IMG/VR virus record: IMGVR_UViG_2974666281_000001
Location: 1 to 64,000 of that record
Strand: one strand, 5' to 3'
DNA length: 64,000 nucleotides
DNA from: a virus
Taxonomy: Duplodnaviria > Caudoviricetes
Shown: positions 1-63,643 of the stretch, piece by piece
Position numbering within the stretch: position 1 is the stretch's first letter
Layout of the letters: each line of letters begins with the position of its first letter
Made by a program: the position numbers and the translations under genes
The notes under the pieces: model-generated
Told to the model about the DNA's origin: nothing
Database searches by the model: none
Seen by the model: only the letters and a program-made list of their open reading frames with translations

Positions 1-2169
1 TTACGAGCCCAGATTCAGTAGTTTAGCAAAGTCGGCAGCTTGTGTTTCAGACATACTATACCGACCTTTCATGTATTCAGAAAGAACAACGTTCTCTTTC
101 TCAAATTTCTTAACCCGTGCTTCTTGTTTGTCTGTTGCAAATTCAGTCAGACTTTCAAAAATGTTTCGAGCAAGTTTATGTTCATCGACATTCTCAGTCC
201 AGCTATTTTTGAACGACATAGCATAATTCTTCAATTTCATAGCCGCAGCAGAAACAGAACCACGTTCAGTGAAGAATTTGTCCATTGGAGCCAGACATTT
301 GTGTTTATTGATATGACGAGAATAATATGAATAAGAGCCAGAATCAACTGTATATTCATCATAGTCAACAGTATCAATAAGTTCGATAAAGAATTCACTC
401 ATACGTTTGTACAGTGATTTTAACTTATTATTCTTGTAAGCATACTTCCAAACAGCAGGACGAAGCACAATGTATTCTTTAATGTCGTCAATATATTCTA
501 CACAAGTCTTAATAGAATATTCAGCGATGTTGTGGATAATCTTACCGTCGATATCATAAAAATCATCACGATTTTTAAAGAGAACCCATTCTTCATCTAA
601 GTCGTAAACATCTTTAGCCGACAAGAACAAATCTGTATGATCAAGACCACCACTAGGATTTTTAACCAAGCGATAACCATTAGGTGATTTAGGACGAACT
701 GCACTTGGTCCTTTATTGACTTCTTCTTTTTTAACAATACCTTGGGCTTCAGTCAGTTCAGACATTTTGTAAACTTCGACTGGGTCTTCACCAAAGAAGG
801 TTTTAATCAATGCTAGAGTCTTCATCTCAAGTTCAGAGTTGACATCAAACATAACGATATCATCAAATGTCTTGAGCTTAGGATAACCAGCAGGCAATTT
901 ATCTTCACGAGTTAGTTGAGCTAATCCACGAATCGTGTCAAGCTTCTTATTGTTCTTAACATCGTTCAGAAGAACAACCAGCTTTTCAGTGTTATGACCA
1001 TACAGGCGATTCACTGAAGCAGTCTTAGAATTAGAAGACCATTTAATACGTTTACGAGTAGGAGAAGTACACATCTCGTATGCGCAGCCAACTTCAGCAA
1101 AATACTTAGGAATTTCGTGCATAACCTGCAACTGGCGCCAGTTATATTTTTTAACGCCAAATACTACTGAACGGTTCTGTAAGAAGTTTCTGGCATCATA
1201 AGACAAATTATCAACCATACGGTGAATCTTACGATCATTCGTTTCATTAGCGAAATCTTTCAGGTCTTCTTCTAGAACCTTTTTACCAAGCTCTTCAATA
1301 CGCTTACGGACGTTTGCAGTGGTTTGTTCGTCAAATGAAAGTTCTTCACGTGATGGTGTGATATCGAGTTCGCCAAGAGCAAAGCGAACAAAAGTAATAT
1401 CGTTTTTAATCTGAAGCCAAGATTTGGTTAACCCAGGGCATTCGTTCAATGGATAAACAATGTTACCATACAGAGCGTAGATGCCTTCATTTTCAAAGCC
1501 ATTATAGTTATATGGGATGCTATAAGTGTCTTCAAATTCAGGGAAGAAGTCAATTTCTGTTTTAGTCCCAGTGAGTTCTACTTTGCCTGCGAATGGACGA
1601 AGAACATAACGAATTTCTTTCAACCAAGAACTCAAATCATTCATTTTAACAGGAACAGTGATTTCAATACCGGTTTCATCGCCTTCTTTCATTTGTTCTA
1701 CAAAAGTAGGTTTCAGTACAGGTTCACCGTCATCAAGCATAGCGTTGAAGCCACGAATCATTCCATCATGATAAGAAACAACTGTGAATGTTTCAGTATA
1801 ACTAAATGGGGATTTAGAACCAAGGCCTAATGCACCAATGAAATCATTACTGTTCGACTTAGTTGAAGCAAAATAAGTCGTGTACAGGTTCAGAACATCG
1901 TCTTCGCTCAGACCAGGACCAAAGTCACGAATAACAAATCGTGGGTCCAGCTGAGAAGGAGCTTTAATTGTAAATGGCTTAGTCTGACCATTTAAGAAAT
2001 GGGCATCGATACAGTTACAAGACAGCTCGCGAATAATTGCACGAATCTTGTTTTTGTACAGATTAGAAGACAAGATTTTAAATGCCTTCGCTGACGTAGC
2101 GATACTAAACTTTTTAGATGCCTGATTTCCTGAACCCAGGATTACTTCATCGTCTGTAACTAATTTCAT
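1..2169 (-). CDS. rIIA: RIIA lysis-exclusion protector (GHKL ATPase-like N-terminus)
   Basis: LSSNLYKNKIRAIIRELSCNCIDAH, RDFGPG and GALGLGSKSPFSY motifs of T4 rIIA; stop codon at 1-3. Confidence 0.95.
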   Translation of the reverse strand: MKLVTDDEVILGSGNQASKKFSIATSAKAFKILSSNLYKNKIRAIIRELSCNCIDAHFLNGQTKPFTIKAPSQLDPRFVIRDFGPGLSEDDVLNLYTTYFASTKSNSNDFIGALGLGSKSPFSYTETFTVVSYHDGMIRGFNAMLDDGEPVLKPTFVEQMKEGDETGIEITVPVKMNDLSSWLKEIRYVLRPFAGKVELTGTKTEIDFFPEFEDTYSIPYNYNGFENEGIYALYGNIVYPLNECPGLTKSWLQIKNDITFVRFALGELDITPSREELSFDEQTTANVRKRIEELGKKVLEEDLKDFANETNDRKIHRMVDNLSYDARNFLQNRSVVFGVKKYNWRQLQVMHEIPKYFAEVGCAYEMCTSPTRKRIKWSSNSKTASVNRLYGHNTEKLVVLLNDVKNNKKLDTIRGLAQLTREDKLPAGYPKLKTFDDIVMFDVNSELEMKTLALIKTFFGEDPVEVYKMSELTEAQGIVKKEEVNKGPSAVRPKSPNGYRLVKNPSGGLDHTDLFLSAKDVYDLDEEWVLFKNRDDFYDIDGKIIHNIAEYSIKTCVEYIDDIKEYIVLRPAVWKYAYKNNKLKSLYKRMSEFFIELIDTVDYDEYTVDSGSYSYYSRHINKHKCLAPMDKFFTERGSVSAAAMKLKNYAMSFKNSWTENVDEHKLARNIFESLTEFATDKQEARVKKFEKENVVLSEYMKGRYSMSETQAADFAKLLNLGS

Positions 2170-2967: not shown

Positions 2968-4806
2968 TTAGCTCATCCAGGTCTTACGAAGTTCTGGATT
3001 ATCACCTAATAGCATTTCAAAAAGTTCTTTCCAGTTATCAGGCAGCTTAACAACATCGTAAACGGGTTCCATGATAACACGTTTGTATTCTTCACGTTTC
3101 AATGAACCGAGACCTTTGATATAACGAATATCGTAGCCCTTGAGACGTTCCTTGGCCTTTTCATATTCAGCCAAATCATACAACCATTCTTCTTTCTTGC
3201 CTTTAGTAGCAATGATTACAGGGGTCTTAACGAAACGAATACGTCCTTGTTCGAACAACTCAGGCCATTGAGTAAAGAAGGCCAGCAGTGAAGGATAAAT
3301 TGAACCTGTTCCATCGACATCAGCATCAGTCATAATACCAATATTACGATAGTTCATTGAATCAGCCTTTTCACCAATGGTCAATCCGGTGATTGCACAG
3401 ATATCAAATGCTTCTTTGTTCTTAAGAATATCAGCTGTAGACATACCCCAGGTGTTCATGAACTTACCACGTAATGGATAACCACCATGTAGTTCTCGGT
3501 CGCGAACTTCAATCAGATAGCCAATTGCCGAGTCACCTTCTGTTAAGAACAATGTTGTGTCTAATTTATCATCACCATATTTGTTAGGCTTGATGTGTTT
3601 GGCAACTTTGGCTTTTTGAGCCTTCTTAGCAGCTTTAGTTTCAGCAGCCTTTTCAGCAGCAATTTTACGAGCTAATGCTGCTTCAATAATAGGCATCAAT
3701 ACTGCTTCAGATTTCAAAATCTGTTGAGCAATCTTTTTAGTGTCTAATTGAATATGAGAGCGAATTTCGCCAAACGGAGAAGTCAATCGTTCTTTAGTCT
3801 GAGAATCGAAACGCATGTTCTTCATACCACGAACAAACATCACAAAAGTCAGACATTCTTTAACTCTGGCCTTAGTGACTTCAATTTTATGCTTTCGCTT
3901 GATTGCTGGCAGAAGTTCTTCGCAGATGTCATCCATCACACAATCAATATGGTGACCACCATTCTTAGTATGAATGTTATTCACATAAGTCAGATGACGG
4001 AAGCCATCTGGTGAACGACCAATAGCTATTGAACAATTATCAGCGTCAGCAATAACAGCTTCTTCGTCAAATTGTTTAGCAAACTTCTTGAAGTTACCTT
4101 GTACTTTTTTACCGTTGAACTTAAACTCAATATCTGGATAAACTACAGCCAGAGTTTGAAGCCGATCAAGAATAATATCAAGATATTCTTGGCTGAGTTC
4201 GTTAGTTTCGAAATGACTAAAGTCAGGAATAAACGAAACTAATGTACCTGTTTTAGCAGTTACATGTTCTTTATTTTTAGCTGGTTTTGTATCCCAACTA
4301 ATATTCTCTGCACCATTTGAGCAACGAACAACGATTTCATTTTTACCATCGCAAGTTGCGCCAGCGAAAGTAACAGAGAAGATATTAGTCAAAGAAGAAC
4401 CAACACCGTTCATACCGCCGGTTTCACGGTCTGCATCATCACCGAAGTTACCACCTGCTTTAGGACGAGTCCATGCAGCAACTGGTCCAGGGATTTCAGT
4501 TCCTTCAGGAGTCATAACAGGAGTTTGTGGAATACCACGGCCGTTATCTTCAACAATAACTTTATTACCACGAACTTCTACAGAAATTTTATTTGCATGA
4601 GCAAATCTAGTACGAATAGCTTCATCCACAGAGTTATCAATGATTTCATCAATCAGTTTAATAACGCCTGGGACGTATTTGACTTTTTCAAATTTACCGA
4701 ACAAAAAACGTTCGTGTTCTTCGTTAGAAGAAGAACCAATGTACATCCCGCTACGTTTGATAATGTGTTCACGGTCAGACAGAATTTTAATTTCGTTCTT
4801 AATCAT
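2968..4806 (-). CDS. 39: type II topoisomerase large subunit, uninterrupted gp39+gp60 fusion
   Basis: EIIDNSVDE, DNGRGIP, GGMNGVG (GHKL); TEGDSA, PLRGK, MTDADVDG (Toprim); YIKGLGSL. Confidence 0.97.
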   Translation of the reverse strand: MIKNEIKILSDREHIIKRSGMYIGSSSNEEHERFLFGKFEKVKYVPGVIKLIDEIIDNSVDEAIRTRFAHANKISVEVRGNKVIVEDNGRGIPQTPVMTPEGTEIPGPVAAWTRPKAGGNFGDDADRETGGMNGVGSSLTNIFSVTFAGATCDGKNEIVVRCSNGAENISWDTKPAKNKEHVTAKTGTLVSFIPDFSHFETNELSQEYLDIILDRLQTLAVVYPDIEFKFNGKKVQGNFKKFAKQFDEEAVIADADNCSIAIGRSPDGFRHLTYVNNIHTKNGGHHIDCVMDDICEELLPAIKRKHKIEVTKARVKECLTFVMFVRGMKNMRFDSQTKERLTSPFGEIRSHIQLDTKKIAQQILKSEAVLMPIIEAALARKIAAEKAAETKAAKKAQKAKVAKHIKPNKYGDDKLDTTLFLTEGDSAIGYLIEVRDRELHGGYPLRGKFMNTWGMSTADILKNKEAFDICAITGLTIGEKADSMNYRNIGIMTDADVDGTGSIYPSLLAFFTQWPELFEQGRIRFVKTPVIIATKGKKEEWLYDLAEYEKAKERLKGYDIRYIKGLGSLKREEYKRVIMEPVYDVVKLPDNWKELFEMLLGDNPELRKTWMS

Positions 4807-44025: not shown

Positions 44026-44945
44026 TTAGTTTTACCATACAATGGCCGTATTTCCACTTACTCATGACCTTATGTCCGTTAGTATAAGTGACTTCGACAA
44101 TTGCTTTATGATTTTTAATTTTCATGATTACGCCTGTTTCAAGCGAACCATACCCATAATAAATGGCGACTGTGTCACCAACATTTAAAAGAGAACCACG
44201 ATAGTCGTTCATTTAACCTCGAAGCTTTTGAAGCTCTTCGTCATCAATCCATGACTCAAGACCTGATGGTAAAGCACATTCCACTTCCCACAGCAGTTCT
44301 TCAATCTTTTGAAGGCGTTCTAGTTCGTCAAGTTTAATGAGTACTTCTTTATCTGTAACAATCATTTATTCACCTTGATAGTTTTTATCATCACACCAAC
44401 TACAGTCTACCTGGAAATCAGGTTCACCATATTCCCAACGATGTCCTACAACATTATCGTTTACATCATATTCTTCTTCAATCCCTACATAAGACCATTG
44501 GATTGTATGAAGTTCTTTACCTTGAAGGATTTTAGATTCGCCCCATTGATTATTAAAAGCAAAAGAAGGATTATCTTTTGCTCGTTGAATCATGTGGTCA
44601 GTGAAGGTAGATTCTAAATCTACCTGGTCACCAGCGACTATAACTAAATCGATTTTAATCATCTTTAAAGTTCCAGAATGAAGCTACTACAAGCCATAAA
44701 GGCCAGAAGACTAACGACAAAACACACATACCGAAATCATTCTCTTTAATAAGAGATGTCAACGTTTTAGTATAGCCAATACCCATAATAATATAAGCAG
44801 CTAAACAAACACCTTCAACCATGAATCTTTCCTCGCATCACATCGTTAACTTTAGCTGCATGATTGATAAACTCACGAAGCTGTTGATGAGTCATTTTAC
44901 TCTCGATACGTTTTAAGCGAACGCCGTCACGAGGACGGCGTCTTT
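44018..44945 (-). other. run of small hypothetical genes (44018-44212, about 44213-44365, 44366-44662 and further short ORFs)
   Basis: abutting minus-strand ORFs. Confidence 0.55.
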
Positions 44946-58488: not shown

Positions 58489-58549
58489 AATTACCTCTTG
58501 AGTTTACATTAAAGTACCTCAATGGTAATAAAACCCTGATTTAAACATA

Positions 58550-58720
58550 TTAACCTCTGTCAATAATTTCATAGATTTTGTTTAGATAATCATCGCCTAA
58601 ACGAGCTCGAATCAGTTCTTCAAAAGTAATAGGTTTTTCAGCCCAGCCTAATACTACGGATTGGGTTTGAAGAACATGTTGAAGCTCTTCAAGGGCTTCT
58701 TGTTTAGTACTAATTGTCAT
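58550..58720 (-). CDS. 56-aa hypothetical protein, not in the ORF track
   Basis: hand translation MTISTKQEALEELQ..; AGGTG SD. Confidence 0.6.
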   Translation of the reverse strand: MTISTKQEALEELQHVLQTQSVVLGWAEKPITFEELIRARLGDDYLNKIYEIIDRG

Positions 58721-61898: not shown

Positions 61899-62139
61899 AA
61901 TAGCCACCTTTATGTACATAACGAATAGAAATATCTAGCTTAATAGGGTCTTTAAACATCTGAACAGCACGTACTAGTTTACGATCGTAACAAATCAAGC
62001 TACGAGATACCAGGCCGTAAAAAGGCCCAGCAACAAAAGTAATTTGGATGTCAGGTTTTGAATTAAGCTCTTCTAGAGTTGCTTCAGTTTCAATAACAGA
62101 CTTTTGGAATGGGCCGTTCATAATCATATATCTCATCAT
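61873..62139 (-). CDS. vs.7-like protein
   Basis: F..GPF.GL...SL..YD. Confidence 0.65.
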   Translation of the reverse strand: MMRYMIMNGPFQKSVIETEATLEELNSKPDIQITFVAGPFYGLVSRSLICYDRKLVRAVQMFKDPIKLDISIRYVHKGGYYGSSYNQR

Positions 62140-62669
62140 TGTAATCCTATCACGAAGAAAAGTGGAAGCTCGTTAGTTGTACGCAACACAGCAGTGCTAA
62201 CTTCTTTTTGGTAAGTGGAGTAGAACTTGTGCATCTCTGGCAGACGAATAGGTTCATCTATAATAAAGAGAACACGAGACAATGAGATTCCACGGAAACT
62301 ATTGCAATTTCCACTTAAGAAGTTACGTATCGAGACTGTAATAATATCACGTTTTAATTCATGAGCAGAATAGCGATGACGTTTTTGATTCAGGTGTTCT
62401 TCAATGATTCGCTTCTTAGTGATTTCAGCAAAACTAGATGTATCTGAAATGACTACAACAGAGTTACCACGTTCCAGCCATTCTGAAGTGAATTGAGCTA
62501 CAGCCTCAGTTTTACCTGATTGACGTCCACCATCGATACGAAGAGTACAATATTCTTGCATCAGCGAGATAGGATAAAGCTTTTGGTCTTTAAGTTCTTC
62601 TAAACGATTGTCTGCACGGGTTGAGAACGCATGCATCAAGGTTAGATAGATGGGAGTTAGATATTTCAT
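62136..62669 (-). CDS. vs.8: vs.8-like P-loop NTPase
   Basis: YCTLRIDGGRQSGKT (Walker A), FIIDEP (Walker B), FFVIGLQ. Confidence 0.8.
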   Translation of the reverse strand: MKYLTPIYLTLMHAFSTRADNRLEELKDQKLYPISLMQEYCTLRIDGGRQSGKTEAVAQFTSEWLERGNSVVVISDTSSFAEITKKRIIEEHLNQKRHRYSAHELKRDIITVSIRNFLSGNCNSFRGISLSRVLFIIDEPIRLPEMHKFYSTYQKEVSTAVLRTTNELPLFFVIGLQ

Positions 62670-62679
62670 TTTGTTTACT

Positions 62680-62872
62680 CAGTCTAAGAATGGCAGCATC
62701 CTTGCTGTCTAGTGGCATCCTGCGATATGCCTCAGAGGGCTACAGCCACCACTGTTGGTGGGACCCTGATTGTAACTGGCTTTACCGCGCTTGGGCTTGA
62801 CCTTTTTACAGGTACCAGAAGCCACTTCACACAGAGGACACGACGTTCATGAGGAGAGGTTCAGGTTAGCTT
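62680..62872 (-). ncRNA. candidate structured non-coding RNA or 5' leader
   Basis: no long ORF; about 53% GC by hand count; at least six helices. Confidence 0.55.
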
Positions 62873-62884
62873 TTTGTTTGAAGA

Positions 62885-63301
62885 TTAGTTGTAAATAGCC
62901 TTACCGTAATGTTTGTACCATAAAGGCTTTTGAGCAATTTTTTCATCAAGACGTGCCTGAGATAACATGATGTCATCTAAAGACGGACAGTAATGATTAC
63001 GAAATTCCTTAGGAATGTCACTGATATCCTGAACAGTAACATCCTTGATATTGAACCCACGTTTCAGACATTCAGCAATCAACTGAGTTTGACGATCAAC
63101 TAAGTAGTCAAGTTTGTCATAGAAGAACGTGACATGGCCAGTGCCTAACAAGAACTTAGAAGCAATTTTAAAATCCTTGAGACGTTTGCCATTTTGAACA
63201 TGCTTACGAACAGCACCAAATACACGAGGGAGTTCACGATACTCAGCCATGAGATGTTGGTCAGCAAGTTCAGAAACGAGAGTTAAGTTAATACGTGTCA
63301 T
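62885..63301 (-). CDS. denV: endonuclease V (pyrimidine dimer glycosylase)
   Basis: [28 protein letters not shown]; early promoter at 63327-63356. Confidence 0.97.
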
Positions 63302-63355
63302 GATGTCCTCCAAAGTTTAGGAAGACATCATACCACAGTACTATCTTGTTGTAAA

Positions 63356-63643
63356 CTACTTTTTAGAGTAGTCAGCCATTAGTTTGACTACGTCACCTAA
63401 TTTCTTACCAAACAGATAATCTACTTCTTTACCTGCTTTGTTAACAATCTGCCATTGACCATCGCCTTTGTTGCCAAAAGTATAGTCACCAACTTTAAAC
63501 GAGTAGCCACCTACTTTTTTAACAGGAGTCACTTCAAAACCAAGTTTTTTAGCTTGGAAAGTTACACGACGCAGGGTGTCGTCCATTTCGCTTTCAGTCA
63601 AAGGCTGAGTATAAGTTTGAAGATAAGATTCAAGTAAAGTCAT
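63356..63643 (-). CDS. probable internal head protein
   Basis: lies between e and denV like the T4 ip genes; N-terminal L-x-E motifs (LLE, LTE) like prohead-protease sites. Confidence 0.5.
   Translation of the reverse strand: MTLLESYLQTYTQPLTESEMDDTLRRVTFQAKKLGFEVTPVKKVGGYSFKVGDYTFGNKGDGQWQIVNKAGKEVDYLFGKKLGDVVKLMADYSKK

Follow-up and report, generated by a model that had tools for sequence, protein, structure and literature searches.

The 64,000-nucleotide (nt) stretch of viral DNA analyzed here, referred to below as the window (positions 1 to 64,000 of IMG/VR record IMGVR_UViG_2974666281_000001), is 100% identical to the record of the Erwinia phage Gravdalen (Winklervirus, Tevenvirinae). 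Near its end, a gap without genes lies between denV and a homolog of vs.8, and the minus strand carries every gene around it. An initial annotation of the window had described this gap as a GC-rich, highly structured non-coding element that is not a terminator. We found that positions 62765-62872 on the minus strand are the core, about 108 nt long, of a structured phage RNA family with six helices, P0 to P5. GC content peaks at 0.54 (62700-62849) compared with about 0.35-0.42 around it, and 62400-63400 contains no terminator-like sites. No promoter-like site was found inside the gap (62670-62884) either, so the RNA would be made within the sense-strand message of denV and vs.8.

A BLAST search with the gap recovered about 80 nt at 80-93% identity from hundreds of T4-like phages of many genera, and the flanks of this block were not conserved. 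Of 50,697 phage records searched by BLAST, 401 contain the long form of the RNA found in the window, and 1,040 contain the T4-type form or the block shared between forms. More than 40 distinct members came from pattern scans of IMG/VR, species genomes, and metagenomes and a subsequent search with a covariance model. The model matches T4, an rV5-like phage, the coliphage Ivi, Aeromonas phages, and metagenomic tRNA arrays. The RNA is carried by virulent phages of gammaproteobacteria that belong to several unrelated families, with one copy per genome except in NHEP36, which has two. No copy was found in 5,426 complete Escherichia coli genomes. A scan of 185,579 prokaryote species genomes for the core pattern gave chance-level matches and a single real match, which lies on a mis-binned phage contig. 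The BLAST tallies also include 18 records labeled “Campylobacter” and one labeled “Pseudomonas phage” (PV654520, 142 kb), which have a T4-type copy in a T4-like neighborhood (grcA); these host labels seem doubtful, or the records may be chimeric.

Along the strand, the order of the helices is P0, P1, the P2 hairpin, the 3' strand of P0 (P0'), P4 enclosing the P3 and P5 hairpins, and the 3' strand of P1 (P1') (Table 1). Because P0 crosses P1, the predicted fold is a nested double pseudoknot in which helices lock both ends of the core. P0, P4, and P3 lie on one continuous strand and are probably stacked on one another; the boundary between P0 and P4 moves by one pair between clades, which points to coaxial stacking. 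The many G-U pairs in the helices, which would be A-C on the opposite strand, place the RNA on the gene-sense strand.

Table 1. Features of the denV-vs.8 region in window coordinates, in 5' to 3' order of the minus strand
Feature	Position	Strand	Remarks
denV, upstream neighbor of the RNA	62885-63301	-	Pfam Pyr_excise, 3.3e-15; stop codon 13 nt before P0
Gene-free gap	62670-62884		215 nt, between denV and the vs.8 homolog, both on the minus strand
P0 5' strand, AAGCUA	62867-62872	-	Pairs with 62819-62824, making the pseudoknot
P1 5' strand, CCUGA	62861-62865	-	Pairs with 62765-62769
P2 long imperfect hairpin, ACCUCUCCUCA...UGUGUGAAGU	62824-62860	-	Length variable among family members
P0 3' strand, GGCUU	62819-62823	-	Runs straight on into P4
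P4 5' strand, CUGGU	62814-62818	-	Pairs with GCCAG, 62776-62780
P3 hairpin, ACCU-GUAAAA-AGGU	62800-62813	-	Loop G-U-R-A-N-A nearly invariant family-wide
P5 mini-hairpin, GC...GC	62787-62796	-	Covariation in the 28-sequence alignment
Junction P5 to P4, GGUAAA	62781-62786	-	Highly conserved; invariant columns in two alignments (A3, A5)
P4 3' strand, GCCAG	62776-62780	-	Covariation
Junction P4 to P1, UUACAA	62770-62775	-	Conserved in long forms; GUAAAUA in the T4 type; absent in rV5-like and Ivi forms
P1 3' strand, UCAGG	62765-62769	-	Covariation
First tail hairpin, CCACCA-ACAG-UGGUGG	62746-62761	-	Homologous hairpins of other sequence (CUAGC/GCUAG, CAUC/GAUG) in Karamvirus-type relatives
Second tail hairpin, GGCAU...AUGCC	62714-62731	-	First ANGGA motif, CAGGA 62718-62722 (GGA 62718-62720)
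Third tail hairpin, CAGCA-AGGA-UGCUG	62694-62707	-	Second ANGGA motif, in the loop, AAGGA 62699-62703 (GGA 62699-62701)
vs.8 homolog, downstream neighbor of the RNA	62136-62669	-	177 amino acids, terminase-ATPase-like P-loop protein

Support for this fold came from covariation. The 28 nested pairs were tested in an alignment of 28 sequences, in which 88.3% of cells were standard-paired, compared with 31.7-43.3% when the 3' partners were slid by 1-3 columns. Changes on both sides occurred in 15 of these pairs, compared with 8.9 +/- 1.3 in shuffled alignments (0 of 500 reached 15). The pseudoknot was tested in 26 long forms. With it included, 88.0% of cells were paired, compared with 29-42% after sliding. 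In a separate permutation test, the P0 duplex was more stable when each sequence's own 5' flank was matched with its own P0' rather than with those of others (-5.1 versus -3.4 kcal/mol; 0 of 5000 permutations). Kinship of the aligned sequences inflates the shuffle statistics; stronger evidence comes from how many independent pair types occur in P0, P1, and P4. P0 occurs as seven complementary pairs across clades (AAGC(UA)/(UG)GCUU, AAAGC/GCUUU, AAAGG/CCUUU, AACC/GGUU, GGGAA/UUCCC, GGGG/CCCC, and GAGGG/CCCUC), and its column pair 13-60 is GC in 13 and CG in 11 of the long forms. Four of the five P1 pairs change on both sides, with more than a dozen complementary variants among relatives, and P4 alternates among CUGG/CCAG, UCC/GGG, CCC/GGG, CCUUU/AAAGG, and CUUUU/AAAAG.

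The remaining helices vary in their own ways. One base pair of P2 covaries (AU in 14 sequences, CG in 12), paired deletions turn CUCA/UGAG into CUA/UAG, and the whole hairpin is reduced to loops of 6-10 nt in the T4, rV5-like, and Ivi forms. P3 is 100% paired, with a closing pair that is AU in 22 sequences and GC in 3. In P5, pair 79-88 is GC in 28 of 28 sequences, and pair 80-87 is CG in 25 and UA in 3, with A-U in locus L218. A GUAA/UUAC helix proposed by RNAalifold for the first alignment, which gave only a partial structure, never varies and is lost in T4; it was discarded.

Two of the helices in the initial annotation, the outer CCTGA/TCAGG (62861-65 with 62765-69) and the hairpin ACCT-GTAAAA-AGGT, correspond to P1, which covaries strongly, and to P3. 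A third helix, TGGCTT/AAGCCA, proved to be specific to the window. Relatives instead pair TGGCTT with the 5' flank (P0) and GCCAG with CUGGU (P4), and of the two alternatives only the 5'-flank pairing is kept in T4, Aeromonas phages, and Jiaodavirus. The window's extra pairing is a coincidence; its 5' flank AAGCUA resembles the internal AAGCCA. The description of the gap as highly structured is borne out by covariation, although not by nested minimum free energy (MFE), for which z-scores were -0.13 for the minus and +1.19 for the plus strand, no better than shuffled sequence; nested MFE is uninformative here because the fold is pseudoknotted.

An MFE z-score of about 0 would also be expected if there were no RNA element at all and the gap were a small protein gene, a spacer holding a promoter or terminator, or GC-rich DNA with chance hairpins. 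Consistent with a protein gene, some records annotate open reading frames (ORFs) at the element: 38 amino acids in Gravdalen and, in T4, the N terminus of Vs.8. However, six helices show compensatory changes, stop codons interrupt each of the three core frames in most members, and the ORFs annotated in different records lie on either strand. The match of the Vs.8 family profile in T4 begins only downstream of the element, as described below, and the gap yielded neither a terminator nor a promoter. This explanation is therefore extremely improbable, and the RNA family is almost certainly real. The 38-amino-acid “hypothetical protein” of the Gravdalen record (XPP59682.1, 62709-62825, minus strand) spans parts of the core and tail and is probably spurious, as are the small ORFs that other records place on the opposite strand there. 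A Zn-ribbon-like reading of this ORF was rejected, since its cysteines are not conserved (Jiaodavirus has “SPLS” where the window frame has “CPLC”) and every frame contains stops.

The element also does not belong to a catalogued RNA class. Searches of the whole window with Rfam 15 (4,227 models, including all ribozyme and riboswitch classes) gave no match at the gathering threshold and only chance-level matches up to E = 10, and the T4, AhSzw-1, and G003 loci matched only tRNA models. ARAGORN found no tRNA or transfer-messenger RNA genes in the window, and in relatives it detected the neighboring tRNAs and not the RNA element. No account of it turned up in our search of the literature on vs.8, denV, T4 small RNAs, and phage RNA motifs. 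The unrecognized non-coding RNA proposed in the initial annotation is thus supported as a conserved, covarying, sense-strand RNA, and its family is undescribed and uncatalogued. Several candidate relationships were considered and discarded. Covariance model R1, run with filters off, gave no match up to E = 10 at T4 rnaC/rnaD (L132 7909-8172). A 7-nt identity (GCGGUAA) with the 530 loop of 16S rRNA is too short and is not conserved in Aeromonas forms, and a putative likeness in strand order to flavivirus exonuclease-resistant RNA was dropped.

The genomic contexts of the RNA differ among phages. In T4-like relatives, the conserved block lies directly upstream of the vs.8 homolog, whatever gene precedes it. 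The core is found within or next to tRNA arrays, on the strand of the tRNAs, in Aeromonas phages of the AhSzw-1-like and T4-like types, in G003, and in metagenomic contigs; in NHEP36 and Marfa it precedes internal-protein genes. In the 45-kb coliphage Ivi, a minimal form of the RNA lies between an intrinsic terminator that follows the lysis genes and a consensus TTGACA-N17-GATACT promoter (L224:1060-1400). Since its neighbors change from vs.8 to internal-protein genes, tRNAs, and a terminator-promoter pair, the RNA appears to be an autonomous module rather than a gene-specific leader. Its occurrence as about one copy per genome in unrelated virulent phages of related hosts, the absence of a host copy, and the helix-locked ends also fit such a module.

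Minimal forms occur in Ivi and in rV5-like phages (about 119 records). Their P2 is tiny and the P4-P1 junction is missing, and they keep ACCUGUAAnAAGGU-CGA-GCC(C/A)AAG(U/C)GC-GGUAA at 93-97% identity to T4-like forms. This block of 32-43 nt, comprising P3, P5, and GGUAA, is 93-97% identical in comparisons among T4-like, rV5-like, and Ivi-type phages, in contrast to the other helices, which differ. Ivi and the rV5-like phage HeinrichReichert share a TTGATAG motif, located about 30 nt before P0, that may belong to a promoter of the RNA itself.

Further structure surrounds the core in AhSzw-1-like Aeromonas phages. There, another structured domain, about 75 nt long, occupies the interval from tRNA-Glu to the core (L079:8899-8978; L204:1265-1345, minus strand; L137:2875-2950), and its closing helix covaries (UUCAGAG/CUCUGAA versus UUCAGGG/CCCUGAA). 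Together with two more conserved hairpins after the core, this makes an inter-tRNA RNA of about 240 nt. Two Aeromonas phages share a motif of about 40 nt, AAUCGACGCUUUAAGUAGCCCA..GUAUUUGUAA, which one has upstream of the core (L088:~1990-2030, minus strand) and the other downstream (L137:~3060-3105); it resembles a separate movable RNA or DNA module. The AhSzw-1-like tRNA arrays also contain an ARAGORN tRNA of the amber-suppressor type, with anticodon CUA and listed as tRNA-Pyl (L079:6910-6984, L137:334-408).

In T4, the covariance model places the RNA directly after the denV stop codon (NC_000866 64842-64935; 37.5 bits, E = 5e-8). The T4 copy is a short form, with a plain hairpin of 6 bp as P2, GGGAA/UUCCC as P0, and GUAAAUA as the P4-P1 junction. 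The annotated coding sequence of T4 vs.8 (219 amino acids; 64253-64912, minus strand; L132:1254-1913) begins at an ATG within P2 and continues across the RNA. In T4, the match to the Vs.8 family profile starts only at 64786, and homologs start at MRTFLTG, near 64789. Because both begin only there, the annotated start is probably 42 codons too far upstream. The N-terminal extension of the annotated protein is probably the RNA element read in an accidentally open frame.

Taken together, these features suggest that the RNA may be a compact, nuclease-resistant, autonomous RNA that presents an invariant face, made up of P3, P5, and GGUAA, to a conserved partner. We assign this reading a probability of roughly 0.45. 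It builds on the observation that only the P3 loop, the P3-P5 junction, P5, and GGUAA are kept nearly letter for letter across families. The pseudoknotted scaffold would display this face to a conserved host or phage factor, and the RNA would act as a decoy, a sponge, or a scaffold for a ribonucleoprotein (RNP). A role in host takeover or anti-defense would be in keeping with its location in the ip/denV/vs accessory region of T4-like phages.

Assembled contigs from T4 RNA libraries, matched to a T4-like locus (L196, 96.6% identical to T4), run unbroken through denV, the element, and vs.8, although contigs cannot show ends or cleavage. Two points weigh against an autonomous RNA with a binding face. 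First, constraint may not be the whole reason for the identity of the P3-P5 block across families, as recent horizontal transfer could account for part of it. Second, in the majority of T4-like genomes vs.8 follows immediately after the element, and a conserved tail precedes the ribosome site. This last arrangement could instead reflect a cis-acting leader, riboswitch-like or controlled by a protein, in which the core would be the sensor and the tail the expression platform that sets the translation or stability of the next gene.

The tail consists of the three hairpins that the initial annotation had noticed after the larger structure; all are present, and the first and third covary in relatives. 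In T4-like phages, A(U/A/C)GGA(C/U) is conserved in all tails and is followed by a hairpin with an NGGA(A) loop. The distance from GGA to GGA is constant at 17-19 nt (19 in the window). The loop of the second-motif hairpin is invariant and its stem covaries, with GCCA/UGGC, GGCA/UGCC, GACA/UGUC, and, in the window, AGCA/UGCU. A binding site for CsrA comprises at least two A(N)GGA motifs, at least one of them in a hairpin loop, 10-63 nt apart. The tail resembles such sites in that it has two motifs, one in a hairpin loop, with a spacing in this range, although this is a match of motifs only. The two-ANGGA tail of T4-like phages may add a site for a CsrA-type protein. Between the first and second tail hairpins of the window, the CCCUCU at 62730-62740 is a remnant of a second RNA unit, and some Karamvirus-like relatives carry tandem long and short RNA units (L026:5077-5311, minus strand; L031:8960-9195; L009:1243-1500).

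The constant geometry of the tail and the covariation of its hairpin are what would be expected of an expression platform. In contrast, the Aeromonas, rV5-like, and Ivi forms have no tail, and the tail hairpins do not sequester the ribosome site downstream. The core is also found in tRNA arrays, ahead of internal-protein genes, and, in Ivi, with a terminator on one side and a promoter on the other. Nor does the RNA resemble a riboswitch, as the features downstream vary (vs.8, internal-protein genes, tRNAs, or a promoter) and neither a terminator nor a sequestered ribosome site was found. A leader function is therefore unlikely as an explanation for the family.

Alternatively, the RNA might be a self-cleaving ribozyme of a new class, with a nested double-pseudoknot fold like that of the hepatitis delta virus (HDV) ribozyme, that cuts just 5' of P0. 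Such a cut would split off the upstream message or a tRNA trailer and leave a structured 5'-OH end downstream. The order P0-P1-P2-P0'-P4-P1' equals the HDV order P1-P2-P3-P1'-P4-P2', P0 starts 0-15 nt past the upstream stop codon, and the location in tRNA arrays recalls the phage theta ribozymes (PMC10879173). A conserved core with variable peripheral helices is likewise in keeping with a ribozyme. The detailed comparison argues otherwise. HDV-like ribozymes have a short P3 of about 3 bp, whose L3 loop forms P1.1 with residues after P1'. The equivalent of P3 in our RNA is instead a hairpin of at least 5 pairs and variable length, not a 3-bp helix with an L3 loop; we saw neither a P1.1 nor a G-U pair at the beginning of P0, and the 3' strand of P0 runs directly into P4. 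The catalytic C of HDV-like ribozymes is the first residue of J4/2, where substitutions inactivate (PMC10879173). The equivalent junction does not begin with C; C is the fourth residue of UUACAU(A), the T4 type has GUAAAUA, and the junction is deleted in the rV5-like and Ivi forms.

We therefore rejected membership in the HDV-like class on three features (the catalytic C, the short P3 with L3, and P1.1), even though the strand order agrees. The minimal forms lack an unpaired conserved residue beside the 5' end of P0, 80-110 nt separate the upstream tRNA from the element in tRNA arrays, and no Rfam ribozyme family matched even at E = 10. A ribozyme of a new class is thus quite improbable. The suggestion in the initial annotation of a ribozyme or riboswitch-like leader is neither shown nor favored, in view of the occurrence of the RNA in tRNA arrays, behind terminators, and before unrelated genes and the missing defining features of HDV-like ribozymes.

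The proximity of the RNA to vs.8 raised another alternative, that the RNA is a dedicated partner of the Vs.8 terminase-like ATPase in an RNP resembling that of the phi29 packaging RNA (pRNA) and its packaging ATPase. The vs.8 homolog of the window does carry the Walker motifs GGRQSGKT and FIIDE noted in the initial annotation, and it matches phrog_1488 (E = 2.4e-70) and, weakly, Terminase_6N and AAA_14. Every T4-like genome examined, distant Aeromonas types and G003 among them, has the RNA and a Vs.8-family gene at most 1.5 kb apart. However, three phages with the RNA, Aeromonas phage AhSzw-1, the rV5-like HeinrichReichert, and coliphage Ivi, yielded no Vs.8-family gene in a search with T4 as the positive control. 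The RNA-ATPase module with Vs.8 that had been proposed is therefore not an obligatory pairing. Order and spacing also vary: an internal-protein gene intervenes in Marfa and four small ORFs in the AS-zj type, and in G003 vs.8 lies upstream of the RNA with a lysozyme gene between them. Conserved gene order in the region can account for the linkage, and a dedicated partnership with Vs.8 is very unlikely. A 2026 preprint reports Vs.8 to be toxic when co-expressed with the immune sensor EcAvs2, and the proposed correction of the T4 start is relevant to current work on Vs.8 as an Avs2 activator.

The window has two longer stretches without an ORF of at least 60 amino acids, 44663-44944 (282 nt) and 58489-58709 (221 nt); by this crude count, the denV-vs.8 gap ranks third rather than, as first annotated, longest. 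Scores of the RNA model did not rise above chance level at 44474-44578, just outside the first of these stretches (E = 0.6), and at 58611-58679, inside the second (E = 5.9).

T4, the best-studied phage, carries a double-pseudoknotted RNA that is common to more than 1,000 sequenced virulent phages of several families. In T4 it sits in an accessory region that also holds known anti-defense genes, including vs.4, which is Acb2. Another is the gene for TadIV-1, an inhibitor of type IV Thoeris (PMC13243611), which appears to be vs.3, judging from primer and plasmid names in that paper. A bolder proposal, which we regard as somewhat doubtful, is that the family is either a new class of self-processing ribozyme, with an HDV fold and another active site, or an RNA factor for anti-defense or host takeover, shared horizontally by unrelated virulent phages, that binds and neutralizes a conserved bacterial protein. 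In T4, the RNA would have escaped notice for decades because of its annotation as the N terminus of Vs.8.

The RNA can be compared with several known systems. Its tail is similar to RNAs that bind CsrA/RsmA in that a pair of A(N)GGA motifs occurs at a spacing of 17-19 nt, with the second motif placed in the loop of a short hairpin that covaries. CsrB-type sponges, however, have about 8-22 motifs rather than two, neither tail motif overlaps the ribosome site, and the tail is missing from the Aeromonas, rV5-like, and Ivi forms. With HDV-like ribozymes (HDV, CPEB3, drz, and theta), the RNA shares a 5' end at a helix junction, a fold that lies wholly downstream of that end, and variable peripheral helices, but the catalytic C of J4/2 is required in those ribozymes and the equivalent junction is dispensable here. 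The phi29 pRNA, which works with the gp16 packaging ATPase, is likewise a structured phage RNA encoded near a gene for a terminase-type ATPase. It has no sequence or structural similarity to our RNA; furthermore, Vs.8 is not the packaging enzyme, and in three lineages the RNA occurs without it.

Within the T4-type phages, a 2010 review of T4 RNA biology listed no characterized riboswitch or trans-acting small RNA and gave RNAs C and D as having no known role (PMC3014915). These RNAs, encoded by rnaC and rnaD (the species 1 and 2 RNAs), are similar to ours as small non-coding RNAs of T4-type phages whose function is unknown, and they adjoin tRNA genes, as the RNA element does in Aeromonas phages (PMC3014915). 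They differ in showing no homology and having another fold, and in T4 they lie 6 kb from the denV-vs.8 RNA. The leader of T4 gene 32 mRNA also places a pseudoknot upstream of a gene in an early message of T4-type phages. That operator, however, is a simple H-type pseudoknot dedicated to a single gene and the product of that gene, whereas the RNA described here has a double pseudoknot and is found before unrelated genes and in tRNA arrays.

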